DNA of 48,627 nt from Nitrospinaceae bacterium (GCA_029261675.1 JAJDBA010000047.1:1-48627), one strand, 5' to 3'; positions 15,588 through 44,969 are shown, counted from the first letter of the stretch. Numbers and translations are program-made. Notes: generated by a model not told the origin, from the sequence alone.

Positions 15588-15615
15588 TTGACAACAAATA
15601 TCGTCAACGTATAAT
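15588..15615 (+). promoter_or_regulatory. near-consensus sigma70-type promoter upstream of the NHL-repeat gene
   Basis: TTGACA (15588-15593), a 16-nt spacer, then TATAAT (15610-15615). This implies a leader of about 150 nt before the ATG at 15772. Confidence 0.5.
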
Positions 15616-15771: not shown

Positions 15772-17946
15772 ATGTTCAAAAAATATTTATACTTAATGAC
15801 AGGTTTGGTTCTTTTCCTGGGATGTGCTTTCCCAAGAGCCGAGGCCTTGGCTAAGACAGTTTCGGCCACTAAAACAGAAATTTCACTCGTAGATGGCATT
15901 GCCGTGGATAAAAAAGGCAACGTTTATATTGCCATGCGCGATAATAATATTATCAGTCGTATTGACCTTAAAGGGAATATGACCACTTACGTTGGTACTG
16001 GCTCTTCCGGTTTCAGCGGCGATGGTGGCAAGGCTACCGAGGCCAGATTGAATGTGCCTGCCGGACTGGCATTCGACAAAAGCGGGAATTTATATATCGC
16101 TGACCGAAACAATAATCGCATCCGCAAGGTTGACACGCGAGGCACTATCACCACGATCGCGGGAACTGGAACTGCCGGTTTCAGCGGCGATGGCGGCTTG
16201 GCTACGCGGGCACAAATAAGCCTCCCTTCCGGAATAGCTATTGATGGCAAGGGCAACATATTTTTTTCAGATCGATCCAATAACCGGATTCGAGTGATTG
16301 ATTCCAGTGGAAAAATCAGCACCTATGCTGGAAGCGGAAAAGATGGTTTTAAGGGAGATAACGGCCCTGCCCTCAAAGCTTCCATAGACAAGCCATTTGG
16401 GATAGCACTGGATAGAAAGGGAAACCTTTATATAGCTGACCGCAGAAATAACCGAGTCCGCAAGGTCAATACGCAAGGAATCATTACCACCGTGGCAGGT
16501 GATGGTGGCTACTTTATGATGGGTGATAACGGACCTGCTTATAGAGCCAGTGTTGCCGGGCCGACAGGTGTCGTAGTCGATGATCAAGGCACCCTTTATA
16601 TTGCTGACCGGGAAAATAACCGTATCCGTGCAGTGGACTCACAAGGCATGATCTCCACCGTTGTTGGAACCGGGAAACAGGATTACAACGGAGATTCAGA
16701 AGTGGCTCGCGATACAAACCTTCATCTTCCTTTCGGAGTCACATTAGATCCGGATGGCAAGTTACTGGTGATCGACCGCTCGCATTATCGCATTAGAAGC
16801 GTAGACTTGAAACGCGGTACTGTAAAAACCATTGCAGGAAATGGTAGAAAAATGTTCGCCGGAGATGGCGGCCCTGCAACAGGAGCTACACTGAGTTTCC
16901 CACATGGTATCGCAGTAGATAAAGAAGACAATGTGTTGATTTCAGATAAAGGGAATTACCGAATTCGTAAGATTTCCCCAGAGGGCATTATCCACACCAT
17001 TGCTGGCAACGGCATCCGCGGAAATATCGGTGACAATATGCCCGCTATGGAAGCCTCAATTTATGGGGCCACCTCGCTGAAACTGAACAACAAAGGAGAA
17101 ATGTATATTCTCAGCCCAAGCGGATTTGTGAGCCTGATTCGAAAGATTGATGAAAATGGGATCATGAGAAAAACTCTTGATACGGTTACTCCCAGATACC
17201 TTAAATCGATAGCGAATAGTAAGTATAAAGGCAAGGTGCAAACTGGGGAACTGGCTATCATCACTACCTTTTCAGATATCGCTTTCGATCACAAAGGCAA
17301 TATGTTTATCTCTGACCGGCTCAATCACCAGATTCGCAAAATGGACTCAAAAGGCAACATCTCCACCATCGCGGGAACGGGTGAGTCGTCTCATTATGGA
17401 GATGGCAGCCCTGCAAGTGAAGCGGCCTTTCGAGACCCCAGTGCATTAGCCACAGACAAAGAAGGAAATTTGTATATTGGGGATGGCGCCAATAATATGA
17501 TAAGGAAAATTGATACAAAGGGTATCATCTCTACCATCGCAGGCAACGGTAATCACAAAGCCACTGGCGATGGAGGGCCAGCAGTGAAGGCAGGCATTCG
17601 CAATATAGATTACTTGGAAGTCAGCCCAGAGGGGGAAGTTCATATAGTAGGAATGAATTCAAACACTATCCGAAAAATCACTAAGGACGGGAAGATTGTT
17701 ACGGTAGCTGGAACAGGTTATCAGGGTTATTCTGGCGATGGCGGTCCCGCGACCAAGGCCATGCTTAAAAGCCCAGTGGCTATAACATTCGATTCGAAGA
17801 GCAATTTATACATTACCGACATGGGCAATAACCGTATCCGAAAAGTGGATACTAAAGGCATCATTACTACGTTTGCGGGAACGGGTAATTTCGGTTGGGC
17901 TCATGATGGCGAAACAGTTGAGATTATTTTACAGGATTTCCCCTGA
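15772..17946 (+). CDS. exported NHL-repeat beta-propeller protein (about 12 blades)
   Basis: The 724-aa ORF has a signal peptide (LVLFLGCAFPRAEA) followed by a roughly 56-aa unit repeated about 12 times: (I/V)AGTG..G(F/Y)SGDGGPA..A.L..P.G(I/V)A.D..GNLYI(A/S)D..NNRIRK(V/I)D..G.I(T/S)T. Confidence 0.9.
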   Translation: MFKKYLYLMTGLVLFLGCAFPRAEALAKTVSATKTEISLVDGIAVDKKGNVYIAMRDNNIISRIDLKGNMTTYVGTGSSGFSGDGGKATEARLNVPAGLAFDKSGNLYIADRNNNRIRKVDTRGTITTIAGTGTAGFSGDGGLATRAQISLPSGIAIDGKGNIFFSDRSNNRIRVIDSSGKISTYAGSGKDGFKGDNGPALKASIDKPFGIALDRKGNLYIADRRNNRVRKVNTQGIITTVAGDGGYFMMGDNGPAYRASVAGPTGVVVDDQGTLYIADRENNRIRAVDSQGMISTVVGTGKQDYNGDSEVARDTNLHLPFGVTLDPDGKLLVIDRSHYRIRSVDLKRGTVKTIAGNGRKMFAGDGGPATGATLSFPHGIAVDKEDNVLISDKGNYRIRKISPEGIIHTIAGNGIRGNIGDNMPAMEASIYGATSLKLNNKGEMYILSPSGFVSLIRKIDENGIMRKTLDTVTPRYLKSIANSKYKGKVQTGELAIITTFSDIAFDHKGNMFISDRLNHQIRKMDSKGNISTIAGTGESSHYGDGSPASEAAFRDPSALATDKEGNLYIGDGANNMIRKIDTKGIISTIAGNGNHKATGDGGPAVKAGIRNIDYLEVSPEGEVHIVGMNSNTIRKITKDGKIVTVAGTGYQGYSGDGGPATKAMLKSPVAITFDSKSNLYITDMGNNRIRKVDTKGIITTFAGTGNFGWAHDGETVEIILQDFP

Positions 17947-18020
17947 TTGATCTCGTTTTCATGAGGTTTAACAGCAAATCAGGTAGACATTTTAAATTTT
18001 TTATCTGGAGAAATTTCACA

Positions 18021-18524
18021 ATGAATCGTTTTATTCTCACCGGGCTGATTTTTATTTCATCTCTGGTAATCAGCAATAATACTTTTGCGGCAGACACGGA
18101 TGTGTTTGCTGCTATCTTGAAAAAAACTGATAGTCTCGCTTGTACCCAACCCGAAAAACTTCCAAGTCATTATGGTCAAGGTCTGGTCATTATGGAAGAT
18201 GATAAGCGCGCGTTGTTGGCAAATCGGGTAAAAGATTATCGTCAAATGATCGCAGATTTTCGAGATATTAATTGCCGGGTTCAGCGCCAGATTCTCTCAG
18301 GACATGTAGGAAGTAAGGTCGGGTATGTGCTGGCTGACGAAATCAGTAGCATCACCTCCAAATCGAATGATACCGATGAGCGACAGCACAGTGTCTGTAG
18401 TTATAATTTTGTCAAAGAAGGTTCAAATTGGAAAGTAACTCTTGAGCATTGTTCTAGCTTACCCGATTACAGCATTAATCCCGGGGACGATGCCTTATAC
18501 TATTTTCATAATCCAATTTATTGA
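18021..18524 (+). CDS. exported hypothetical protein
   Basis: The start at the ATG at 18021 is preceded by GGAGA and gives a signal peptide (MNRFILTGLIFISSLVISNNTFA). The longer ORF from 17961 adds a basic non-signal extension. No family recognised. Confidence 0.6.
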   Translation: MNRFILTGLIFISSLVISNNTFAADTDVFAAILKKTDSLACTQPEKLPSHYGQGLVIMEDDKRALLANRVKDYRQMIADFRDINCRVQRQILSGHVGSKVGYVLADEISSITSKSNDTDERQHSVCSYNFVKEGSNWKVTLEHCSSLPDYSINPGDDALYYFHNPIY

Positions 18525-18560
18525 TTCCCTCCCTTTTACAGGGTAGGCTATGTCTTGGGG

Positions 18561-18602
18561 AAAGGTTTATGCGGATACACTGTCTACAAACCTTTTCTTT
18601 TT
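18561..18602 (+). terminator. candidate intrinsic terminator between the NHL unit and the Hpt/cytochrome unit
   Basis: AAAGGTTT (18561-18568) pairs with AAACCTTT (18588-18595) and is followed by TCTTTTT. The loop is large (19 nt) and the stem AT-rich, so this is weak. Confidence 0.3.
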
Positions 18603-18652
18603 GAATCTAGCGTCACTCTTGAGAGCGTGATTCGGTAAAATGGGGAATCTCA

Positions 18653-18961
18653 GTGGGAAAAATTATTGCACATGTCGACCCTGATTTACGAGAATTGATT
18701 CCAGGCTACTTGCAAAATCGTCGCAAAGACATCAAAGCCATCGGCGCCGCACTCAAAGATGCAGATTTGTTAAAAATTCGCACCCTCGGTCATTCCATGA
18801 AAGGCTCGGGCGGCGGATATGGATTCATGCCCATCAGTGTGATTGGGGCCGCTATTGAAAAAGCAGCAAAAGAAAAAGCCCCCGACGATATCCAAGCTCA
18901 TCTCGATGAATTACTCAGTTATCTGGACAGCGTTTCCGTTGTATATGATTCGCCCGTCTGA
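18653..18961 (+). CDS. histidine phosphotransfer (Hpt) domain protein
   Basis: The 102-aa ORF has a GTG start and the Hpt signature around the phospho-His (IRTLGHSMKGSGGGYGF), within a four-helix-bundle-sized protein. Confidence 0.75.
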   Translation: MGKIIAHVDPDLRELIPGYLQNRRKDIKAIGAALKDADLLKIRTLGHSMKGSGGGYGFMPISVIGAAIEKAAKEKAPDDIQAHLDELLSYLDSVSVVYDSPV

Positions 18962-19013
18962 TTAGACGACTCAGTTGATTTCTTAACTTCGCTCTTACTC
19001 TTCCAAAAATATT

Positions 19014-21389
19014 GTGTTCACTTTTAAAAAGGGACTGGCAATTTTTCTGATTACCCTGATAGGGGTCTGCTCTGCCTATGCTCAGGAAGAAGATTGGACT
19101 TTTTGGCAGCAAAAACTTTTCCAAGCTAAAGCGGACGATGCCAACGATCACGAAAAAGCGCATTTCTGGAGGACCCAGGAACCTCACATCAAAGAGGTAA
19201 AGGTCACCGCAACTCTGCCCGACTACCCTTGGGTAAAAGTCGCTGGTTACAGAAACCGTTCAGTAGAGCGTTGCATCACCTGTCACGATGGCATTTCTGC
19301 CGTCAGCACATCACATCCACCGGAGTTTGGTTGCACTGTCTGCCATGGCGGCGAACCTGAATCCCTCAACAAAGATCAAGCCCACGCCACATTAATATAT
19401 GATCCCAAAGCTGGGACCGGGAAGCGCAACCCATCCAGCCTAACTGTGGTTGAGCAATCCTGCGGGCAACTTTATTGCCACTCTGGCCATACAGAGGAAG
19501 ATCGTAACCATATTCAACGATTAAACAAATCTATGATGAATACTCTGGCTGGAGTGATTTCAGGCTTGCGTTATCAATGGGCCGGACAAAATAAAAAGAC
19601 CGCACGTTATGCAACAGAAGAAATTGCAGACAAAGACGGCAATACACCACATGAATGGGGTGCTTTAGAAAAGTTGGAAAAACTGCCTTACTTTTCTCCT
19701 TTGGATATCCCAAAATCGAATAAAAAAAACATCCACGCGATTTCAAAAAATCCCGGTGACCGCCTTTTGCGCCAACAGTGTTTTCAATGCCATATAGACT
19801 CCCCACCGCCGCCGGGACAATATCGGTCCCAAGGTTGCGCAGCTTGTCATTTCACTTATTCGAGTACAGGCCTCTATGAGGGCGATGATCCTACTATCTC
19901 CAAAACACAAACAGGTCATGCAAAATTCCACAAGCTTCAGGCTCTACCAAAACGCACCGTGTGCGTGCAATGCCATCGAGGATTTTCTTTGCAGCCTTTG
20001 GGCAATGACCCTTCTCCGGTTAGAGAGAAGGGGGCAACCGAACCCGCTGAAGAAATAAATGACGAGCTAAATATCGATCAGCCACTACAAAAAGAAGTGT
20101 TTATCGAAAAAGGACTAGAAAGAATTGAAATTCCTATAGAAGAAAAAGTGATAGATGATGAAAACGAATTGTTCTTAAAAAACCTTGAAGAGAATCCTGA
20201 AAAAGTTGTCATAACAAGCGAAGAGGAACAATCCGTAATAGAAACTCCTCTATTTGCAGGGCAGGGAAATGTTCAGGTTGATGTCCATACCGCTCGTGGT
20301 ATGGATTGCATCGACTGCCACACGCAACGCGATATCATGGGAGATGGCAACCTGTATTCTAAACAGCATCAAGCTGTAGAAATTCGTTGCGAAACCTGTC
20401 ATGGTGATGACACTAGCTATCCTCTGGTATCTCAAGTTACCGATCCCAAAGACGCGGTAATTCGACTCAGTAACAACTACGAGGGCGAACCCAATTCTGT
20501 TGGAGACTCGATGGCTGTTTCCGAACGAAAAAGACGAATGGCAAATGTAAAAGTTCAAAACGGGAAAATGGTTACCCTTAGCAAACGTAGCGGTCGTGTT
20601 TATAATATTCCTTTGGTTCGAGATACAGATGCCCATTTTATTCCACAGCACCGATCTCGATTGGAATGCACCGCCTGCCATTCTCAATGGGTGGTTCGAT
20701 GTCCAGGTTGCCATGTCTCCATGAAATTAGGACAGGATAAATTAGATTTGAAGATTGCACCACCTATGCAAGTTCAACAACCGACACTTATGATAGGGCC
20801 TCGTGGAAAAGTTGCGCCGATGCTTGCGCAACCCGAAAGGCATTTTTCACTGTTAGATGAAAAGGGAAATCCAATTCCCGTATTGGGGCCTGCAGGACAA
20901 CACCGTGGAGAATATAAGGAATGGCCTTTCACCAATCCTCATAATACATCGGGGGCAAACCTTGCTTATTCGTTAAACCCTCATTCCACAGGAACAAAAG
21001 TTCGTTCCTGCGAAAGTTGCCATTTGTCTCCTAAAACTTTAGGATTAGGAGAAGGCGACTTGAAAATTGGCGCAAATAATACCGGAAAAAATGATTCCTT
21101 GATTCCGTTGAACCATTCCGATGAACGGGTCAAGGCATCAAAATTTGATCCCGAAGCAAAAGTCTCAATGCAAGGAGAAATTCTTGCCGGAAGTCATCAA
21201 CTCATAGCCAGGCCTTTTAACCAAAAAGAGATAATAAGAATTTTGAAAGTGGGGAATTGCATTCCATGCCACGATCAATATGATGACCCCATTTATCAGA
21301 ATATTAATAAAAGCTATGCCTTCGAAGGCACAATGAAACACCGTAAACTGCGTGAAAGAATATTGAACCTAGAGCAAACACAACCGTGA
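19014..21389 (+). CDS. multihaem c-type cytochrome, 11 CxxCH + 1 CX4CH
   Basis: The 791-aa ORF has a GTG start and a signal peptide (LITLIGVCSAYAQ). Haem motifs are CITCH, CTVCH, CGQLYCH, CFQCH, CAACH, CVQCH, CIDCH, CETCH, CTACH, CPGCH, CESCH and CIPCH. Confidence 0.92.
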   Translation: MFTFKKGLAIFLITLIGVCSAYAQEEDWTFWQQKLFQAKADDANDHEKAHFWRTQEPHIKEVKVTATLPDYPWVKVAGYRNRSVERCITCHDGISAVSTSHPPEFGCTVCHGGEPESLNKDQAHATLIYDPKAGTGKRNPSSLTVVEQSCGQLYCHSGHTEEDRNHIQRLNKSMMNTLAGVISGLRYQWAGQNKKTARYATEEIADKDGNTPHEWGALEKLEKLPYFSPLDIPKSNKKNIHAISKNPGDRLLRQQCFQCHIDSPPPPGQYRSQGCAACHFTYSSTGLYEGDDPTISKTQTGHAKFHKLQALPKRTVCVQCHRGFSLQPLGNDPSPVREKGATEPAEEINDELNIDQPLQKEVFIEKGLERIEIPIEEKVIDDENELFLKNLEENPEKVVITSEEEQSVIETPLFAGQGNVQVDVHTARGMDCIDCHTQRDIMGDGNLYSKQHQAVEIRCETCHGDDTSYPLVSQVTDPKDAVIRLSNNYEGEPNSVGDSMAVSERKRRMANVKVQNGKMVTLSKRSGRVYNIPLVRDTDAHFIPQHRSRLECTACHSQWVVRCPGCHVSMKLGQDKLDLKIAPPMQVQQPTLMIGPRGKVAPMLAQPERHFSLLDEKGNPIPVLGPAGQHRGEYKEWPFTNPHNTSGANLAYSLNPHSTGTKVRSCESCHLSPKTLGLGEGDLKIGANNTGKNDSLIPLNHSDERVKASKFDPEAKVSMQGEILAGSHQLIARPFNQKEIIRILKVGNCIPCHDQYDDPIYQNINKSYAFEGTMKHRKLRERILNLEQTQP

Positions 21390-24124
21390 ATAAATTGTTT
21401 CGAATTTTTCTGTCGCTGATCTTTGTATTAGGGCTCTGCCTTGGCAGCTTCCTTACCTATTCTTCGGGCCAGGATACAAACGATTTCTCTGACTTTTTTG
21501 ATGGGAAGCCAACTGACGAATCGATTGATACCCCGCCTGATAAAGATTCGTCTGGGATACTGGACTTCTTTCTAAAACCGGGATCCAAAACGAAAGATAT
21601 TCAAGAAACAGAAATCACTCCCAAGCCTGGAAAAACATTGCACACCAAAGAAATGGTTGAGATGCCAGCATCGTCGCCTAAGACTCAAATTGATGCTTCC
21701 GATTTCGAAGACCCTTTTTATCGAGTCAGAGGATTCCAGGGAAATTCAGAAAAAGTCCTGCAACCGGGTACAACATTGGATGGAGTTCAGTTTCAAACGT
21801 ATGGAGACACTAACAAGTTCATTGAAAAGTTTTATAAAGAATCTAACTTTTCACTCGAAGATGTGTATGGGAAAATTGAATACCTTGAAAGGCGTGGTGG
21901 CTGCTATAACTGCCATCAGGGAATTGAGAGGATCAGCAACAACCATCGTTTTTCCTGCGTTCGTTGCCATGGTGGCAACAGGCGATCCAGTTCATTACCG
22001 AATGCCCATAAAGGGCTTGTACCAAATCCATCCTCGGCAAAAAATGCTCCCCGATTTTGCGGGAAATGTCATGGTGACCATGTCCGCAAAGTAGAGCGAT
22101 CGCTGATGTCGACAGCTAAAAGAATGATCAACATAACCCGCTTCGGGTGGGGCGCGCAACCTGAGGATGAACTTCCATTCTCATTGCAGCCGGATGATAA
22201 CGAACAGGCCCTGCTCAGTGCAGGAGCGGGTCACCCTGTAGACGGATTTCTCAGAGCCAAATGCCTGCGTTGCCATATTGGATCAGAAAGCCCTCATCGT
22301 CCCGGAGATTACCGGGCATCGGGTTGTTCTTCCTGTCATATGATTTACTCGAACGATGGAATCTCATTGTCACATGACCGAGCTATACAAAAGCTGCAAA
22401 ATAAAAGTGGCAAACAAAATCGTTTTGCCAGAAAATTTTCGGAAAACTCTTTGAATAATTCACGCGGCTATCCCTTGCTACATAAGTTCACCGTTGCTGT
22501 TCCGAGTTTGCAGTGCGAGCATTGTCACAACAATAACGGAGTGGGGCAAGAATTCGAAGGCCTATTTGCAAAACCTTCACGCCCAAAGGAAGCACCGGAG
22601 CAGATCAACGCAGAAAAACCCGTTCTATATGGTAAAGAGCATGAATTTCTCGTTCCCGATATTCATCGTGAAAAAGGCATGCATTGCATCGACTGCCATA
22701 TTGGCGCTGAAATGAAACCCGATGTAGAACCAGATCAGCTTCATTCTGGAGTACAGATCCGTTGTGTTGATTGCCATGGTACCCAGGAAAAACTTCCTGA
22801 AGAATTTCTTTTAATCGAATCGGACCCGAACACAAAAAAAATGATCGCGAGTACCAACCTTAATCCCAATCTGAAGAAAAAAATTCGCGCGGGAGATACT
22901 GTTTTAGTTAATTCAAGCGGTTCCCCTATGTTGCATATTAAACGGGTAAAGAATAAATGGGTTTTAATCTCAAAGGTTTCAGGAAAGAAACACAACATTC
23001 CTTTACTTAAAAACCTCAAGCCTTCTATAGCGCACCAGATTCCAAAACATATGCGGGAAATGGAATGTGCCACTTGTCATGCACGTTGGGCAGCTACAGA
23101 ATGGGGCATGCACGTTATACGAGAGGAAAATTTTAACCCTGAAAAATGGAAAAACTGGAACCTCTCTGATCCTTCCCTGCAGTCTTTATTGTCAAATTCT
23201 TCAATTGAAAAAACAGGGATGCTGGATTGGCCGACAGCCAAATCACTGCCACAAAAAATTGAAGCCAGCATGTTAGATGAATACTGGTGGACCGTGTTCT
23301 CTGATGCTGGATGGTCTGATATGGTGATGGGTAAGAATTCGCGTGGGAAATATGCCATTCTGAAACCTCGTTATCAATATTTTATCACCGAGCCAGTAGG
23401 ACCATCAGGTCTCCCTTCGAAACGGGCAGAGCCTCCCTTAACACTTGACGATTCCCCTGGTTTGATTTGGACGGATCACTCACCCCATACGATTCGCAAA
23501 ACGGTACGCTCTTGTGAAAGTTGCCATCAAAACTCTTTATCTGTGGGGCTTGGGGATAGTTTGAAAAAATCTATTCAGAATGCCGGACAATTTTTCTCAG
23601 GATTAAAACAGAACAATCAGGTAAATTCAGACTTCCAACTCAAGCAAGGAATAGATCCAAACGGTCAGGCATTACAGACTTTCTTTCCGGGAGATAAATC
23701 GCGTTTTCTAAACAGCGAAGAGATCACTGCCTTGCAGAAACCCTCAGACCGCTACCGGGCATTTCGCTCTCTGAATTTACGGGAGCTGAATTTTTCAAGA
23801 CTATTGAGTCGCAAAGAATTCCCCTATGATGTTCGGCATCGGCTTCGTGAAAATAATATGGGACAATCGCAGCCTCGCGAAGACCTTTTCTATAACGCTG
23901 AAAAAAATCAGTTTGTTAAAATTGAAAAACCAAAAGAAGCTCCAGAACTTCCCGAAGAATTCGCACCTGAGCAGCCGCAAGAATCAGAGGAAAGCAACGA
24001 AACGATGAAGCCTGATAAAGAAGAAGATGGAATCATTGAATTTCTCTACGACATCTTTCAGGAAAAGGGTAAGCCCCCGGTCAGCGAACCTCTGCCGATA
24101 CCTAGTGAAGCTACTCCACTATGA
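21386..24124 (+). CDS. multihaem c-type cytochrome, 10 CxxCH (paralogue of the preceding gene)
   Basis: The 912-aa ORF has a GTG start overlapping the upstream TGA (GTGA) and an N-terminal signal/anchor (IFLSLIFVLGLCLG). Haem motifs are CYNCH, CVRCH, CGKCH, CLRCH, CSSCH, CEHCH, CIDCH, CVDCH, CATCH and CESCH. Confidence 0.92.
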   Translation: MNKLFRIFLSLIFVLGLCLGSFLTYSSGQDTNDFSDFFDGKPTDESIDTPPDKDSSGILDFFLKPGSKTKDIQETEITPKPGKTLHTKEMVEMPASSPKTQIDASDFEDPFYRVRGFQGNSEKVLQPGTTLDGVQFQTYGDTNKFIEKFYKESNFSLEDVYGKIEYLERRGGCYNCHQGIERISNNHRFSCVRCHGGNRRSSSLPNAHKGLVPNPSSAKNAPRFCGKCHGDHVRKVERSLMSTAKRMINITRFGWGAQPEDELPFSLQPDDNEQALLSAGAGHPVDGFLRAKCLRCHIGSESPHRPGDYRASGCSSCHMIYSNDGISLSHDRAIQKLQNKSGKQNRFARKFSENSLNNSRGYPLLHKFTVAVPSLQCEHCHNNNGVGQEFEGLFAKPSRPKEAPEQINAEKPVLYGKEHEFLVPDIHREKGMHCIDCHIGAEMKPDVEPDQLHSGVQIRCVDCHGTQEKLPEEFLLIESDPNTKKMIASTNLNPNLKKKIRAGDTVLVNSSGSPMLHIKRVKNKWVLISKVSGKKHNIPLLKNLKPSIAHQIPKHMREMECATCHARWAATEWGMHVIREENFNPEKWKNWNLSDPSLQSLLSNSSIEKTGMLDWPTAKSLPQKIEASMLDEYWWTVFSDAGWSDMVMGKNSRGKYAILKPRYQYFITEPVGPSGLPSKRAEPPLTLDDSPGLIWTDHSPHTIRKTVRSCESCHQNSLSVGLGDSLKKSIQNAGQFFSGLKQNNQVNSDFQLKQGIDPNGQALQTFFPGDKSRFLNSEEITALQKPSDRYRAFRSLNLRELNFSRLLSRKEFPYDVRHRLRENNMGQSQPREDLFYNAEKNQFVKIEKPKEAPELPEEFAPEQPQESEESNETMKPDKEEDGIIEFLYDIFQEKGKPPVSEPLPIPSEATPL

Positions 24125-24780
24125 AAAGTTTCCTTTACATTCTGATGGGTGGATGGTTTCTTTGTAGCCCAATTCTTTCCCACGCTTCTTTGATTCAGGA
24201 AAAAGAATGCTCCGAATGTCATCGCGTGTCCAAGGATGATACTGAAAAAAGCGGGCCAGATTTATTTTATTCAGGAAATAAATTTCAGGCCTCCTGGCTG
24301 AAACAATACCTCCAAAACCCTATAACCATCAGAAGTGCAGGGAGCACTGGCGATCCTGATTTCCTGAAAGGGATACAAGCAAACAGTCAGAAGCATCCTG
24401 CGGTTTCTAAAAAGGATGCAGAGCAAATTACTAAGGAGTTGATGGCGTTAACGCTTTATGATCTGCCGGAAGAGGTTAATCTCCTCGAGCCTTTAACAAA
24501 AGGACTAAAAGCGAAAATAAAATACCAGTTCGAGCGTACATTCAGTTGTATCTCCTGTCACCAAAGTTTGAATCTTGCTGGAAAAGTTCGTGGTGGGATT
24601 TCTGGCCCCTCTCTCGTCAATGCGGGAAACCGTTTGCAGGCGCGTTGGGCTGCAAGCTGGCTTAAGAGTCCCAAAACATTTTCAAATAAAAGTCGTATGC
24701 CTGTTTACAAGATGGAAGATGAGGAGCGTTTACAGCTTACCCAGTTCCTAATGACGATGAAAAATGAAAATAAGCGCTGA
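24121..24780 (+). CDS. dihaem class I-type cytochrome c
   Basis: The 219-aa ORF overlaps the upstream gene by ATGA and has a signal peptide. It has two similar halves, each with CxxCH (CSECH, CISCH) followed by GP(D/S)L...W...L..P. Confidence 0.85.
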   Translation: MKSFLYILMGGWFLCSPILSHASLIQEKECSECHRVSKDDTEKSGPDLFYSGNKFQASWLKQYLQNPITIRSAGSTGDPDFLKGIQANSQKHPAVSKKDAEQITKELMALTLYDLPEEVNLLEPLTKGLKAKIKYQFERTFSCISCHQSLNLAGKVRGGISGPSLVNAGNRLQARWAASWLKSPKTFSNKSRMPVYKMEDEERLQLTQFLMTMKNENKR

Positions 24781-24783
24781 CCC

Positions 24784-25251
24784 ATGAAAAAAAGTTCACC
24801 CAAATTTATTTTGAACTATTGTATTTTTCTGATTGCATTAGGCATAACAGGCTGTGGCGAAAAAACCTCCGAAAAAACTCCGGCACCTAAACCTCCGCTG
24901 AAAGCCGAATCACATTCACCTGCCCCTTTAGCAGAGGCGACTCAAGAACCTGTAGTGGTAACAGAAAAAACACGCAAAACCTATCAATGGTATTGTGCGC
25001 AGTGTCACGGCATTCAGGGTAAGGGCGATGGTATCAATGCCAAGTTTTTGACCGTGCCACCTCGAAACCACACCAAAGCCAAATATCTTGAAACCCGAAC
25101 CGATGAACAATTCTTTGAAGCGATCAAGTTTGGCGGTCTATCTGTAGGACGGGCACCCTGCATGCCAGCGTGGGGGAATACCCTGAGCGATTCTACGATC
25201 CATGAACTCGTGCGCTATATTCGAGAACTATGCCAATGCGAAGCTCTATAG
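24784..25251 (+). CDS. monohaem cytochrome c lipoprotein
   Basis: The 155-aa ORF has a lipobox (ALGITGC), CAQCHGIQGKGDG and a distal Met context (CMPAWG), typical of small class I cytochromes. It starts 3 nt after the upstream stop. Confidence 0.85.
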   Translation: MKKSSPKFILNYCIFLIALGITGCGEKTSEKTPAPKPPLKAESHSPAPLAEATQEPVVVTEKTRKTYQWYCAQCHGIQGKGDGINAKFLTVPPRNHTKAKYLETRTDEQFFEAIKFGGLSVGRAPCMPAWGNTLSDSTIHELVRYIRELCQCEAL

Positions 25252-27688: not shown

Positions 27689-28189
27689 ATGGAAAGCGTT
27701 AACCACATTTGTAGTTGCCAGAATGGATTGAGCGAGGCACAAAAAAAGCAGGCGGATGCCGTAGCCGGAGGGAGCTTTGAAAAGTTACTTGCCGAGTTTC
27801 AAATTTTGCGAACAACCTCTGGCGCAAAAAACCAAACTGCCAATTCCAAAAATCCGTTCGAAAATTCCCGCGCCTCTGACATTCGGGATATCTTTTTTCT
27901 GAATCAGGAAAAAGCAGAAGGTGCTTCTCTTTCTCTGCAGAATTTTTTCTCCTCTATGAAATCCGAGAATCAGTTTGAGAATTCTCGAGCTTCCGACATT
28001 CTGAATATCTTTTTTCTAAACCAAGAAAAACTAAAGGAATCTGATACCGATCCTCAGAAATTTGATAATAATTCCCCGCTGGACATTGAGAAATTAAGAA
28101 AAGATTTTACTAACCCTCGCGAGGTTCCGGGTTTTCTCGAAAAACAGTTTGAATTGTTTGGCCCCACCGTCATCAGCCGATTTATATAA
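27689..28189 (+). CDS. hypothetical protein with a duplicated FENSRASDI..IFFLNQEK motif
   Basis: The 166-aa ORF carries the 19-aa motif at 27857-27913 and 27974-28030, 39 codons apart. The two copies use different synonymous codons. Confidence 0.65.
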   Translation: MESVNHICSCQNGLSEAQKKQADAVAGGSFEKLLAEFQILRTTSGAKNQTANSKNPFENSRASDIRDIFFLNQEKAEGASLSLQNFFSSMKSENQFENSRASDILNIFFLNQEKLKESDTDPQKFDNNSPLDIEKLRKDFTNPREVPGFLEKQFELFGPTVISRFI

Positions 28190-29944: not shown

Positions 29945-30023
29945 AAATCTATACAAAAATAGCATTTTTGTCTAATTTAATGTTGACAAATCTAATAATT
30001 TGTATAATATTAAATCTATACAT
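29945..30023 (+). promoter_or_regulatory. promoter region with AAATCTA repeats (candidate operator of the CarH-like regulator)
   Basis: TTGACA lies at 29983-29988. TATAAT at 30003-30008 gives only a 14-nt spacer; TAATAT at 30005-30010 gives a 16-nt spacer. TAAATCTATACA occurs at 29944-29955 and again at 30011-30022, and AAATCTA also occurs at 29988-29994. Confidence 0.4.
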
Positions 30024-30068
30024 AGTTCTAAGTTTTTAATTATAATTATAAATCAGGGGGACAGACCA

Positions 30069-30776
30069 ATGATAGCAAAACAAACCATCTTCAAAACTTT
30101 GGCAATCGCTTCTTTGACCTTAATAACCTCAGGCACCGTGTTCGCCCATTCCAATCATGATCATTCTACAGTTCCATTCAAATGGCAGTTTTCAGAAAAC
30201 CTACATTCAAAAATTGAGAGAAACTTAAATTCTACAAAGCCCACAGGAGTTATTGGCTTAAATCCTTTCGAGCAGAAAAAGTTCAATCACTATGGAATCA
30301 AAGTTGGAAATAAATTCAGTTCTATCGTTCACAATATTGATGTCACATTCGAAAGAACTTCAGCAGGTCTTAAAATTACGAATGCCTCAGTTTTTAATAC
30401 AACAATGAACGGCGATATTCTTCCGTTTAAAAAAGTTTCAGAAGTTTCCAAAGTTTCTATGCAAAAACATTTTCACTCTGGGCATAACCATGACCGTCTA
30501 CAAGTTGAGTGGGTATTTGGAGATACCACCAATGCAAAAATCTTCAAACATATGTTTGAAGGTAAGGGCAGTCTCTCCGTAGGCTTGACCAATCTGGAAC
30601 AAGATTTACTGAATGAATATGGAATTAAACCTGGAAATAAATTCCAACTTTCTATTTCCGGACACAACTTTCTTGCAGAAAGAACTTCTGGTGGACTAGT
30701 CATCCTTAATCACATTGACCAAAAGAATCTCGCCAAGGCAGATTTGAACAAAGATACGGTTAAGGACAATATCTAA
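30069..30776 (+). CDS. exported protein with two tandem ~105-aa domains, each opening with an HS.H.H motif
   Basis: The start at the ATG at 30069 is preceded by GGGGGA and gives a signal peptide (...TSGTVFA/HSNHDHS). Domain 1 starts at 30147 and domain 2 at 30474 (HSGHNHD). The two are collinear (W.F, GL...EQ...YGIK.GNKF, ERTS.GL.I.N). Confidence 0.7.
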   Translation: MIAKQTIFKTLAIASLTLITSGTVFAHSNHDHSTVPFKWQFSENLHSKIERNLNSTKPTGVIGLNPFEQKKFNHYGIKVGNKFSSIVHNIDVTFERTSAGLKITNASVFNTTMNGDILPFKKVSEVSKVSMQKHFHSGHNHDRLQVEWVFGDTTNAKIFKHMFEGKGSLSVGLTNLEQDLLNEYGIKPGNKFQLSISGHNFLAERTSGGLVILNHIDQKNLAKADLNKDTVKDNI

Positions 30777-30808
30777 TCTCGTTTCAAATATAAGGGATCA
30801 CAATTCCT

Positions 30809-31753
30809 ATGATTGACACTGGCAAAATGGAAAATTTGATTTCAATAGGTGAACTGGCACGACTGACCGGAATAACGACTCACACATTGAGAATGTGGGA
30901 AAAGCGATACGGCACCCCCCATTCCCAAAGGTTGCCTTCCGGTCATCGCCGGTATCCCAAAGAAGATGTTCCAAGACTAAGGGCAATTGCCAAAGCTTTG
31001 GAGTCGGGATATAGGGCCAGTAAAGTGGTCTCTGGTACTTTGGAAGAATTGCATGGTTTGATGGGACTAAAACCTTTAATCGATCCTAATCTCAAATCAA
31101 CTAAGGAAAATGAGAACTCGTCTAACGAACTGTTAATTGAGCGTTGGATAAAAGGGATTCATGAATTCGATGACGACTGTCTTATTCAGGGTTTTCATGA
31201 ACAATGGAATAAATCTGGCCCTCTCAAATTCATTATTGAATACATGATCCCTTTAATTGAAAGAGTAGGCAAGGGATGGGAGTCCGGCGAACTCTCTATT
31301 CCACACGAACATTTTGCAACAGAATGCATAGAAAGTTTTCTCACCCCTAAATGGAGACAACTGAATAGTAGAAAAGAAGGTTGGAGTTTATTAATGGCAA
31401 CTTTGCCAGGAGAAACCCATAACCTGGGGCTACTTATGTCTGCTGTTGTTGCAAGTCTTTCTGGTGCGAAGATCATCTATCTGGGTCTGAATACCCCATT
31501 GGAAGATATTATTTCAACTGCTAATAATTTTGATCCCAAACTCCTTTGTCTCAGCATTTCCTGCGGAAAAAAATTATTTGATCCAGAAGATTGCCTTCTA
31601 AAAATAAAAACAGAATTGAACAAGAATGTAACCCTTATTTCAGGGGGAAAAGGAACTCCAGATAATTTACCTGGAATCACAAAGATGGAAGATTTTAATA
31701 TTTTCAACCATTGGTTGGAAAACTTTGAAAAACAATTACTAACAGCAGTCTAA
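30809..31753 (+). CDS. CarH/LitR-like MerR-family regulator with a C-terminal B12-binding domain
   Basis: It has an N-terminal MerR HTH (ISIGELARLTGITTHTLRMWEKRYG). W157-x9-E167-H168 (GKGWESGELSIPHEH) matches Wx9EH. E202-T-H204-N-L-G207 matches (D/E)xHxxG, followed 41 residues later by SIS and 27 residues after that by GG. Confidence 0.8.
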   Translation: MIDTGKMENLISIGELARLTGITTHTLRMWEKRYGTPHSQRLPSGHRRYPKEDVPRLRAIAKALESGYRASKVVSGTLEELHGLMGLKPLIDPNLKSTKENENSSNELLIERWIKGIHEFDDDCLIQGFHEQWNKSGPLKFIIEYMIPLIERVGKGWESGELSIPHEHFATECIESFLTPKWRQLNSRKEGWSLLMATLPGETHNLGLLMSAVVASLSGAKIIYLGLNTPLEDIISTANNFDPKLLCLSISCGKKLFDPEDCLLKIKTELNKNVTLISGGKGTPDNLPGITKMEDFNIFNHWLENFEKQLLTAV

Positions 31754-31789
31754 TTTAATATTTTTTGAATATAGGGGGAATGTATAAAA

Positions 31790-32314
31790 ATGGAAGACCT
31801 CAAGCAAGCAGTGATACTTATAGGACATGGTGGATTGCCCAGCGATATTCCCAAAGGAATCGTGGAAGATTTTATGAAAATCCACAAACAAAGAGTACGG
31901 ATGGGAACTCCAATAACTGAAAAAGAAAAAGATCTGGAATCTACTATTAGAAACTGGGAAAGAACACCCGAATCAGATCCCTATAAAACTGGATTAGAAA
32001 GTCTTGCTTCTCATCTCGCCCCCCGGCTGGAGGGTTATGTATTGAAAACGGCCTACAATGAGTTTTGTTTTCCATCGATAGAACAAGCAGCTGACCAATT
32101 GGCCGAAGAGAATGTTACGGAAGTCATCCTAATAACCACAATGATTACTCCGGGCGGATCGCATTCAGAAAGGGAAATACCTGAGGAAGTTGAGGCTCTT
32201 CGCTTAAAGTACCCCAAAATGAACTTTCAGTATGCCTGGCCCTATGATCTGGATATTTTTTCAAATCTTTTATCAGATCATATTATTAACTTTTCAAAAA
32301 AGTCTTCTGTTTAG
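31790..32314 (+). CDS. CbiX/SirB-like chelatase domain protein
   Basis: The 174-aa ORF has VILIGHGG near the N-terminus and TPGGSHSEREIPEEV near the C-terminus, resembling the single-domain CbiX class II chelatase fold. An insertion of about 40 aa follows the first strand. Confidence 0.55.
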   Translation: MEDLKQAVILIGHGGLPSDIPKGIVEDFMKIHKQRVRMGTPITEKEKDLESTIRNWERTPESDPYKTGLESLASHLAPRLEGYVLKTAYNEFCFPSIEQAADQLAEENVTEVILITTMITPGGSHSEREIPEEVEALRLKYPKMNFQYAWPYDLDIFSNLLSDHIINFSKKSSV

Positions 32315-44610: not shown

Positions 44611-44969
44611 GGGGGCGATCCGGTTTCGACGGGAGAGCTGAAGCAAGGGTTGCATGCACGGGGTGCCGTTGGCCCGTTAAAAAACGGCTTTTATATAATC
44701 GCTAACGATTATGATGTAGCTGTAGCCGCTTAATTTAAACGGTTACCGTCCGCCGCGTCCATGTTCGCGGGATACGGGTCGGACGTCACTCAGCGAACTG
44801 GTTCTGTTTACATGTTCCGAGTAAATGGGACGAGATTTTTAGGAACTGGTGTCGACTTAATCCTGCTTCTGGGAGTTCGTCGGGACAAGACTCAAATCAG
44901 AAGATAAGCATGTAGACGCCTTTGTCTAAAACCTTTCGGACGGGGGTTCGATTCCCCCCGCCTCCACCA
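44611..44969 (+). ncRNA. ssrA: transfer-messenger RNA
   Basis: The 5' GGGGGCG pairs with the 3' CGCCTCC-A-CCA, with G3:U as in tRNA-Ala. It has the T-arm GGGGGTTCGATTCCCCC and the 5' GGTTTCGACGGG block. The tag reading frame is GCT AAC GAT TAT GAT GTA GCT GTA GCC GCT TAA (44701-44733), giving ANDYDVAVAA. Confidence 0.95.

Follow-up and report, generated by a model that had tools for sequence, protein, structure and literature searches.

A conserved block of an Hpt gene and four c-type cytochrome genes in Nitrospinaceae as the candidate periplasmic arm of a Rieske/cytochrome b electron-transfer system

Nitrospinaceae are the main marine nitrite oxidisers and carry out most oceanic nitrite oxidation. 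We analysed a contig of 48,627 nucleotides from a Nitrospinaceae bacterium (GCA_029261675.1, JAJDBA010000047.1:1-48627; this whole stretch is referred to below as the window), in which positions 18,653 to 25,251 hold a gene for an Hpt phosphotransfer protein, followed by four genes for c-type cytochromes that we call CytA, CytB, CytC, and CytD. Our principal conclusion, to which we assign a probability of roughly 55%, is that the four cytochromes are the periplasmic arm of a Rieske/cytochrome b electron-transfer system (b6f-like, of the Cbc5/ExtMNOPS type). The evidence comes from the relationship of CytA and CytB to the ExtM family, from clusters in other phyla in which counterparts of all four cytochromes lie beside Rieske and cytochrome b genes, and from a complex III-like operon described in Nitrospina gracilis (N. 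gracilis). The five genes, as given by a list of open reading frames (ORFs), are:

18653-18961, plus strand: Hpt, 102 aa, a cytoplasmic, stand-alone Hpt phosphotransfer protein
19014-21389, plus strand: CytA, 791 aa, a 12-haem c-type cytochrome assigned to the ExtM family
21386-24124, plus strand: CytB, 912 aa, a 10-haem paralogue of CytA
24121-24780, plus strand: CytC, 219 aa, a predicted periplasmic dihaem class I cytochrome c
24784-25251, plus strand: CytD, 155 aa, a monohaem class I cytochrome c and predicted lipoprotein

An earlier reading of this DNA, made without database searches (the original prediction), had described the four cytochrome genes as translationally coupled and co-expressed, and the ORF list and a read-out of the junctions reproduced its coordinates exactly. 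CytA and CytB overlap by GTGA (21386-21389), CytB and CytC overlap by ATGA (24121-24124), CytC and CytD are separated by 3 nt (24781-24783), and 52 nt lie between Hpt and CytA. Each of the four cytochromes begins with a hydrophobic N-terminal segment, in agreement with the export signals that had been assigned to all of them. Together they carry 12 + 10 + 2 + 1 = 25 haem sites (24 CxxCH and one CX4CH) and not the 24 given previously, a total that had omitted the CX4CH of CytA, though the title of that prediction counted 11+1.

The 12 sites of CytA comprise 11 CxxCH motifs and the CX4CH (C150-C155-H156), and are preceded by a signal or anchor helix (aa 1-23, AYA/Q). Shuffled versions of CytA contain ~0.03 CxxCH, compared with the 11 observed, which excludes a chance origin of the motifs. 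In an alignment of 99 homologues, some as distant as ~27% identity, all 12 sites are invariant or nearly so, the CX4CH among them; they are also conserved in 33 diverse cluster representatives. CytB has a hydrophobic helix at its N-terminus and 10 CxxCH motifs, which are retained in 17 of 18 sequences across phyla; the exception, L075, departs from the others at its first two motifs, which we attribute to a putative miscalled start. Lack of CxxCH conservation in homologues had been named beforehand as a refuting test, and the motifs are conserved in the relatives of both proteins. When compared by BLASTP, CytA and CytB align over 660 aa with 26% identity (E 4e-45) and with ten haem motifs in register, and the two are evidently paralogues.

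Neither large protein had been thought to belong to a recognised multihaem family. This was borne out for NrfA, HAO, MtrA, and MtrC, membership of which is absent, but not in general, since the search with hidden Markov models that had been proposed as a check places both proteins in a named family: NCBIfam NF040943, ExtM, is matched by CytA at 303.6 bits (E 2.3e-90) and by CytB at 179.4 bits (E 9e-53). Both scores lie well short of the 800 bits set for equivalogs, and both proteins are 200-300 aa longer than the 599 positions of the model. By these sequence comparisons, CytA and CytB are ExtM homologues within the same superfamily and not equivalogs. The superfamily is marked by twelve conserved motifs in a shared order, of which CytA has 12 and CytB has 10 in register, a comparison that leaves aside the spacing in GSU2935. 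Pfam returned generic multihaem matches only. An exhaustive search for relatives of CytA gave 1067 clusters (at 50% identity), of which 129 have E <1e-30; almost all are unnamed or 'hypothetical', and about ten ExtM-like representatives are called nothing more than 'hypothetical protein'. The closest relatives of CytA and CytB come from marine Nitrospinaceae and from metagenome-assembled genomes (MAGs) of Nitrospinota, the best genome match being MAG NORP306 (91%). The orthologue in N. gracilis 3/211, CCQ90476.1, is annotated as a 'putative Dodecaheme cytochrome c' and shares a 90% cluster with CytA of the isolate Nitrospina sp. 32_T5.

ExtM itself is GSU2935, a 12-haem protein of the Geobacter extHIJKLMNOPQS or 'bc complex' cluster, in which its gene adjoins those for the 10-haem ExtN (GSU2934), ExtO (a Rieske protein), and ExtP (a cytochrome b). 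This cluster is conserved across all Geobacter; the function of ExtM and ExtN is untested (PMC5877670, PMC2825233). A 12-haem and a 10-haem cytochrome are thus paired in both systems (PMC5877670), and CytB also matches the ExtN model (63 bits). However, CytB appears to be an ExtM-like paralogue and not an ExtN orthologue. The window also differs from the Geobacter cluster in having no ExtO/ExtP, ExtI porin, ExtH rhodanese, or ExtKL selenoprotein nearby, in having an Hpt gene attached, and in coming from an aerobic nitrite oxidiser and not a metal or sulfur reducer.

Two observations concern the family models and their reach. First, NF040967 (ExtN, 415 positions) and NF040968 (ExtO, 416 positions) match the same residues with nearly equal scores, both in CytB (21386-24124) and in the multihaem cytochromes of loci L075 and L077. 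NF040968 is described as an iron-sulfur subunit, and ExtO in the literature is a 14-kDa Rieske protein; it appears that the model was built on ExtN-like cytochromes or is misnamed. Second, members of the ExtM family include sequences whose labels assign them to a Methanosarcinales archaeon MAG and an Armatimonadota MAG (P0344 and P0366 in the hit list), so that the family extends past the bacterial phyla covered by our analysis.

The evidence that carries our conclusion comes from the neighbours of CytA and CytB relatives in other phyla. A genome scan with the closer CytA alignment yielded 80 loci (the broad 33-sequence alignment was too divergent for scanning). At nine of these, from Desulfocapsa, Desulfobulbus, Desulfobacteraceae, Thermodesulfovibrionales, and Nitrospirae MAGs, counterparts of all four cytochromes are found in one cluster, in permuted order; two of the nine come from contigs truncated at one end, where part of that order only can be seen. 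The full set of nine genes encodes, in order, a Rieske protein, a cytochrome b, a subunit IV-like protein, a membrane-anchored octahaem cytochrome (~720 aa), a CytD-like monohaem cytochrome, CytA, CytB, a monohaem cytochrome, and a c554-like tetrahaem cytochrome. Pfam confirmed Rieske and Cytochrome_B, and weakly Cytochrom_B_C, in the Desulfocapsa-type cluster, whose cytochrome b scores 278 bits with the ExtP model (cut-off 290) and whose octahaem scores 84 bits with ExtS. This makes the nine-gene clusters relatives of the Geobacter ExtMNOPS set. With six more deltaproteobacterial loci, in which CytA-CytB is followed by Rieske and cytochrome b genes, this arrangement beside relatives of CytA and CytB is seen at 15 loci outside the Nitrospinota.

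Identities between the window and the nine-gene clusters are 32-34% for CytA, 34-35% for CytB, 37-47% for CytD, and 26-32% for CytC against the C-terminus of the octahaem, and the tight CytA-CytB junction (-4 to +12 nt) is common to both. The clusters differ from the window in gene order (CytC-like, CytD, CytA, CytB), in the contiguous Rieske and cytochrome b genes, and in the lack of Hpt; moreover, their CytC counterpart is a domain of the membrane-anchored octahaem, and their CytD is not a lipoprotein. We found no description of such a Rieske/octahaem/12-haem/10-haem cluster in the papers that we read. The original prediction had read the module as partner-less, and had named as evidence to the contrary orthologous clusters that lie beside a known partner. 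This is largely what we observe, in that the orthologous clusters of other phyla adjoin genes for a quinol-oxidising partner, Rieske and ExtP-like cytochrome b.

Other arrangements were seen in the same set of loci. Loci of Desulfomonile and Syntrophaceae encode a single CytA-like cytochrome, which is membrane-anchored, and have neither a Rieske gene nor a haem-binding cytochrome b gene nearby. The cytochrome gene is preceded there by an ORF that resembles the Desulfocapsa subunit IV-like protein (27-38% by tblastn; L068 9606-10004, with equivalents in L063-L070, L073-L078, L080, and L082). In L068 this ORF encodes 132 aa, has no Pfam match, and overlaps the cytochrome start by 4 nt at its stop codon. 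The two together would be an unusual minimal pairing. In Thermosulfurimonas marina (CP042909.1; L083 1629-9878), an ExtM-like cytochrome of 625 aa comes after genes for a 4Fe-4S protein, an NrfD-like protein, a molybdopterin Fe4S4-domain protein, and a pair of ~478-aa proteins that lack annotation, one of which matches a porin faintly. The cytochrome family here has a membrane partner other than Rieske/cytochrome b.

Within the Nitrospinota, tblastn located the order Hpt-CytA-CytB-CytC-CytD at ~45 loci, including that of the isolate Nitrospina sp. 32_T5, with CytA identity falling from 91% to 38%. The block is conserved in open-ocean planktonic Nitrospinaceae and in every sampled lineage of Nitrospinia. 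With few exceptions its junctions measure approximately -4 to +12 nt (each gene was taken to begin at whichever start codon lies closest to the preceding stop, a choice that favours small gaps), and the 4-nt overlap of CytA and CytB recurs in many Nitrospinota and at several loci of other phyla. This conservation in ~45 genomes supports the coupled, co-expressed gene set that had been predicted. The claim that the local neighbourhood is free of partners also held across the 48.6-kb window, in which we found no Rieske, cytochrome b, NrfD, molybdopterin, or porin-like gene.

A candidate for the membrane partner is known from elsewhere in the phylum. N. gracilis has a single complex III-like operon made up of petC (187 aa), petB (274 aa), petD (270 aa), and an adjacent gene for a 767-aa 'atypical octaheme cytochrome c', and the same operon structure occurs in Kuenenia and M. 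oxyfera (PMC3578206). The Desulfocapsa cluster opens with four genes in the same order and of nearly the same sizes (187/249/245/719 aa). The N. gracilis operon differs in lying at a separate locus, and the likeness is one of order and size. We propose that this operon would supply the unlinked partner of the window module. Complex III is reported in all Nitrospinota, in a comparative study from 2024 that makes no mention of the cytochrome module (PMC10839748). A metagenomic study from 2025 describes, for MAGs of Nitrospinaceae, clusters of at least three multihaem cytochromes that bear as many as 12 haems, and regards their role as unclear (PMC11995701).

The two small cytochromes fit the same comparison. 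CytC has two CxxCH motifs and the sequence SRMPVY, and matches Pfam Cytochrom_C (PF00034, 41.9 bits, cut-off 21.3) and FixO (36.2 bits). In a tblastn search with residues 516-689 of the Desulfocapsa octahaem, a match with 30% identity was found at 24190-24759 of the window; CytC is thus a homologue of the last two class I domains in the octahaem that is linked to Rieske and cytochrome b in the sister clusters. CytD has one CxxCH (CAQCH), matches Cytochrome_CBB3 (PF13442, 41.7 bits, cut-off 27), and has a CMPAW motif that we read as its putative Met ligand. With Pfam scores above threshold, CxxCH motifs, and a downstream Met, both are classed as class I cytochromes c, and both resemble domains of the CcoO/CcoP type. 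CytD is also a predicted lipoprotein: its signal peptide ends in a lipobox, LGITGC (ITGC, within the pattern [LVI][ASTVI][GAS]C), followed by a Pro/Ala-rich tether of ~45 aa. The lipobox is conserved in Nitrospinota orthologues and not in other phyla.

These observations suggest the following scheme. In the class Nitrospinia, an ancestral Rieske/cytochrome b/multihaem cluster would have been split, so that petC-petB-petD-octahaem was kept at one locus and CytD, CytA, CytB, and a free dihaem CytC were placed behind Hpt. CytA and CytB, as ancient paralogues made in ~1:1 amounts, would probably form a heterodimer with a 22-haem chain; we infer this heterodimeric conduit from their paralogy, their tight, recurring junctions, and their conserved pairing. 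Since CytC and the lipid-tethered CytD are class I cytochromes, they would probably serve as its high-potential entry and exit ports. We further infer that the conduit is a partner of the unlinked Rieske/cytochrome b complex and would link it, with reverse flow to quinone, to the periplasmic cytochrome c pool fed by periplasmic nitrite oxidoreductase (NXR) and to a cytochrome c oxidase. A more specific version seems to us unlikely: the detached 22-haem pair, re-equipped with CytC and CytD behind Hpt, would partition nitrite electrons between the oxidase and reverse transport driven by the proton-motive force, or would open a second lithotrophic donor or acceptor pathway.

Since the 25-haem module is found in all Nitrospinia lineages sampled and shares homology with the cytochrome arm of Rieske/cytochrome b clusters from Geobacter and sulfur-cycling bacteria, it is a concrete candidate for part of the electron path of Nitrospinia from NXR to an oxidase or, uphill, to the quinone needed for CO2 fixation. 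The comparison also ties the ExtM family, which has more than 1000 clusters and no solved structure, to quinol-interacting membrane modules in most of the loci examined. It sharpens hypotheses on Geobacter Cbc5, on the electron donor of the ExtKL/MccSep polysulfide reductase, and on relatives of the cable bacteria.

Several points weigh against our proposal. Rieske and cytochrome b genes are absent both from the window and from within 10 kb of the block at the ~45 Nitrospinota loci, so that the hallmark of ExtMNOPS/Cbc5 clusters, a Rieske and a cytochrome b gene in the cluster itself, is not seen there. The partnership is argued from synteny in other phyla and from the literature on one species, and the octahaem would be an orthologue by order and size. 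The ExtM family is not tied to a single partner: the member in T. marina follows an NrfC/NrfD/molybdopterin-like module, and one other member has no visible partner. The features that are specific to the Nitrospinota, namely Hpt, a lipoprotein CytD, a separate dihaem CytC, and acidic insertions, could mean a changed function. Lastly, we found no expression or biochemical data on the Hpt-cytochrome module.

The strongest alternative, which we nevertheless think improbable, is that the module works as an autonomous periplasmic hub, in which CytAB, CytC, and CytD would wire NXR or another periplasmic dehydrogenase (e.g., SorAB) to the terminal oxidase, either cbb3 or a cytochrome c-dependent bd-like CydAA', with no involvement of Rieske or cytochrome b, and in which the haems could also buffer electrons. 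The module is indeed genomically apart from the pet genes throughout the class Nitrospinia, and the resemblance of CytC and CytD to CcoO/CcoP domains would suit such a role. In addition, cbb3 is missing from most Nitrospinia, which depend on an oxidase that is uncharacterised and thought to use cytochrome c (PMC10839748), and the route from NXR to the oxidase is unresolved in N. gracilis (PMC3578206). However, no nxr or oxidase gene is adjacent at any locus compared, a 22-haem chain would be excessive for a simple shuttle, and the same four cytochromes cluster with Rieske and cytochrome b in strict anaerobes that lack NXR and do not share the lifestyle of nitrite oxidisers.

Before turning to enzymatic and extracellular functions, we note which known proteins CytA and CytB resemble. 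Confident AlphaFold2 models, built from diverse alignments, were obtained for CytA (predicted local distance difference test, pLDDT, 85.2; predicted template-modelling score, pTM, 0.83) and CytB (pLDDT 72.7, pTM 0.73, with disorder at aa 25-138 and 849-912). As had been proposed, the models were searched with Foldseek against the PDB, and no known fold was matched by either at E <=0.001; CytA had no match below E 1, the best match of CytB was at E 0.46, and the top matches were unrelated folds. This negative is weak evidence, because multihaem proteins have little secondary structure and haems were missing from the models. A sequence search of the PDB with CytA and CytB returned nothing below E 0.2. 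A family profile gave a local match, at about haems 5-8 of CytA, to NrfA (6v0a, E 3.5e-6), ActA (6lod, E 1e-4), and MccA (E 0.014). ActA is a subunit of alternative complex III, a quinol:cytochrome c oxidoreductase. CytA thus shares a local haem-packing core with NrfA/ONR/OTR/MccA and ActA, but differs from them in having no CxxCK, scores below threshold, no global fold match, and another haem count and size; the shared segment reads as a common electron-transfer haem core and not as a sign of membership.

Specific identities were rejected on similar grounds. For NrfA, there is no CxxCK, the score for Cytochrom_C552 (PF02335) is 14 bits (cut-off 24.1), and the core match is local only. For MtrA/MtrC or a porin conduit, PF22113 scores 19.1 bits (cut-off 30), the window has no porin-like ORF, and there is no structural match. 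HAO (octahaem hydroxylamine oxidoreductase) gave no match in the Pfam, NCBIfam, PDB sequence, or Foldseek searches, and OTR membership was likewise rejected for both proteins.

It is still less probable that CytA and/or CytB form a catalytic multihaem enzyme that acts on a small nitrogen or sulfur compound (e.g., hydroxylamine, NO, sulfite, or polysulfide) and has CytC and CytD for its redox partners. In its favour, the profile matches to NrfA and MccA are weak but significant, K524 of CytA is invariant and Y282, Y288, and Y448 are nearly so, and CytB has nine well-conserved candidate distal ligands for its ten haems. The family also occurs in sulfur disproportionators and, in Geobacter, beside the ExtKL/MccSep polysulfide reductase (bioRxiv 10.1101/2025.11.18.688581). 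Yet neither CxxCK nor another atypical active-site motif is present, the NrfA match is limited to electron-transfer haems, and the Cytochrom_C552 score and the Foldseek search speak against an enzyme of that kind. Furthermore, the 12 haems of CytA stand against 11 to 13 candidate distal ligands that are conserved, a number that appears compatible with full six-coordination.

The reading put forward in the original prediction, in which the module is a periplasmic wire supplied with electrons by a donor outside the cell or in a mineral (such as Fe(II), Mn(II), or an electrode), is the least probable of all. In its favour, the haem count is large, the NHL-repeat lipoprotein encoded upstream recalls the NHL proteins that accompany extracellular electron transfer clusters in Tenderia, D. 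ferrophilus, and G. metallireducens (bioRxiv 10.1101/2022.05.06.490989), and a possible interaction with metals has been speculated for multihaem clusters of Nitrospinaceae (PMC11995701). Against it, neither the window nor the 10 kb around the ~45 syntenic loci yielded a candidate porin or beta-barrel, the MtrC-type Pfam score is below threshold, the NHL and SnoaL-like genes are separable from the block by insertions, the module is kept in open-ocean planktonic hosts, and the orthologous clusters are linked to Rieske and cytochrome b and not to porins.

Three disordered segments were noted in the two large cytochromes:

20007-20267, plus strand: acidic disordered insertion of CytA, aa 332-418, between haems 6 and 7, pLDDT <50
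21458-21799, plus strand: disordered linker of CytB, ~110 aa, aa 25-138
23930-24121, plus strand: acidic disordered C-terminal tail of CytB, aa 849-912

The CytA insertion has 25 D+E among its 87 residues. It is absent, by alignment, from more distant homologues, from the N. gracilis-type orthologue, and from homologues outside the Nitrospinota, and is thus a lineage-specific element confined to oceanic clades. It might be a docking or cation-binding element.

The Hpt protein matches PF01627 at 33.1 bits (cut-off 24.6), and its phospho-His motif, GHSMKGSGGGYGF (HxxKG; H47-S-M-K-G), is conserved in orthologues. Its gene lies directly 5' of CytA at most Nitrospinota loci and is absent from the clusters of other phyla. 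That Hpt shares a transcription unit with the cytochromes had been suggested from its position, and we find it linked to them and conserved as the first gene of the block. No terminator-like site was found between Hpt and CytA, in a promoter and terminator scan that performed no better than on shuffled sequences. Upstream, one feature was noted:

18557-18602, plus strand: tentative terminator-like hairpin and U-run (RNA fold of 18525-18660, z-score -1.0, not significant)

This hairpin may, on weak grounds, be the 5' boundary of the Hpt-cytochrome transcription unit, a placement that is consistent with the insertions found in other genomes between Hpt and the SnoaL-like gene that usually precedes it.

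The usual flanks of the block in the Nitrospinota are an NHL gene and a SnoaL-like gene upstream, and DUF1015 and EngB downstream. In the window, the first two encode an NHL-repeat, lipoprotein-like protein of 724 aa (15772-17946), which matches NHL and Teneurin-NHL repeats from end to end, and a SnoaL-like secreted protein (17961-18524); the NHL gene is preceded by a 12/12 sigma-70 consensus at 15588-15615. In some genomes the SnoaL-like gene and Hpt are separated by a glycogen-debranching-like gene or by an unrelated island. One such island, of 5 kb in a Nitrospinales genome (L020 4585-9206), encodes an XRE-type regulator, an 800-aa ATPase-like protein, and small ORFs. The position between the two genes thus shows itself to be an insertion hotspot. 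These insertions rule out the NHL lipoprotein and the SnoaL-like gene as parts of the module, and because of them we take the conserved unit to be Hpt plus the four cytochromes.

The other genes of the window are housekeeping genes (GcvT, LepA, signal peptidase, TyrRS, EngB, PurD, an ABC transporter, tmRNA, and others). An Rfam scan of the window detected tmRNA alone, a complete gene on the plus strand at 44611-44969 (RF00023, 191.8 bits), far from the cytochrome locus. A 166-aa ORF at 27689-28189 has no Pfam match and contains an internal repeat, NPFENSRASDIRDIFFLNQEK / NQFENSRASDILNIFFLNQEK. Finally, the region 30000-32314 encodes a secreted protein of 258 aa with an internal duplication and His-rich motifs (HSNHDHS and HFHSGHNHD), adjoining a MerR/B12-binding (CarH-like) regulator and a CbiX-like protein, a gene set that may serve light- or cobalamin-regulated metal handling.

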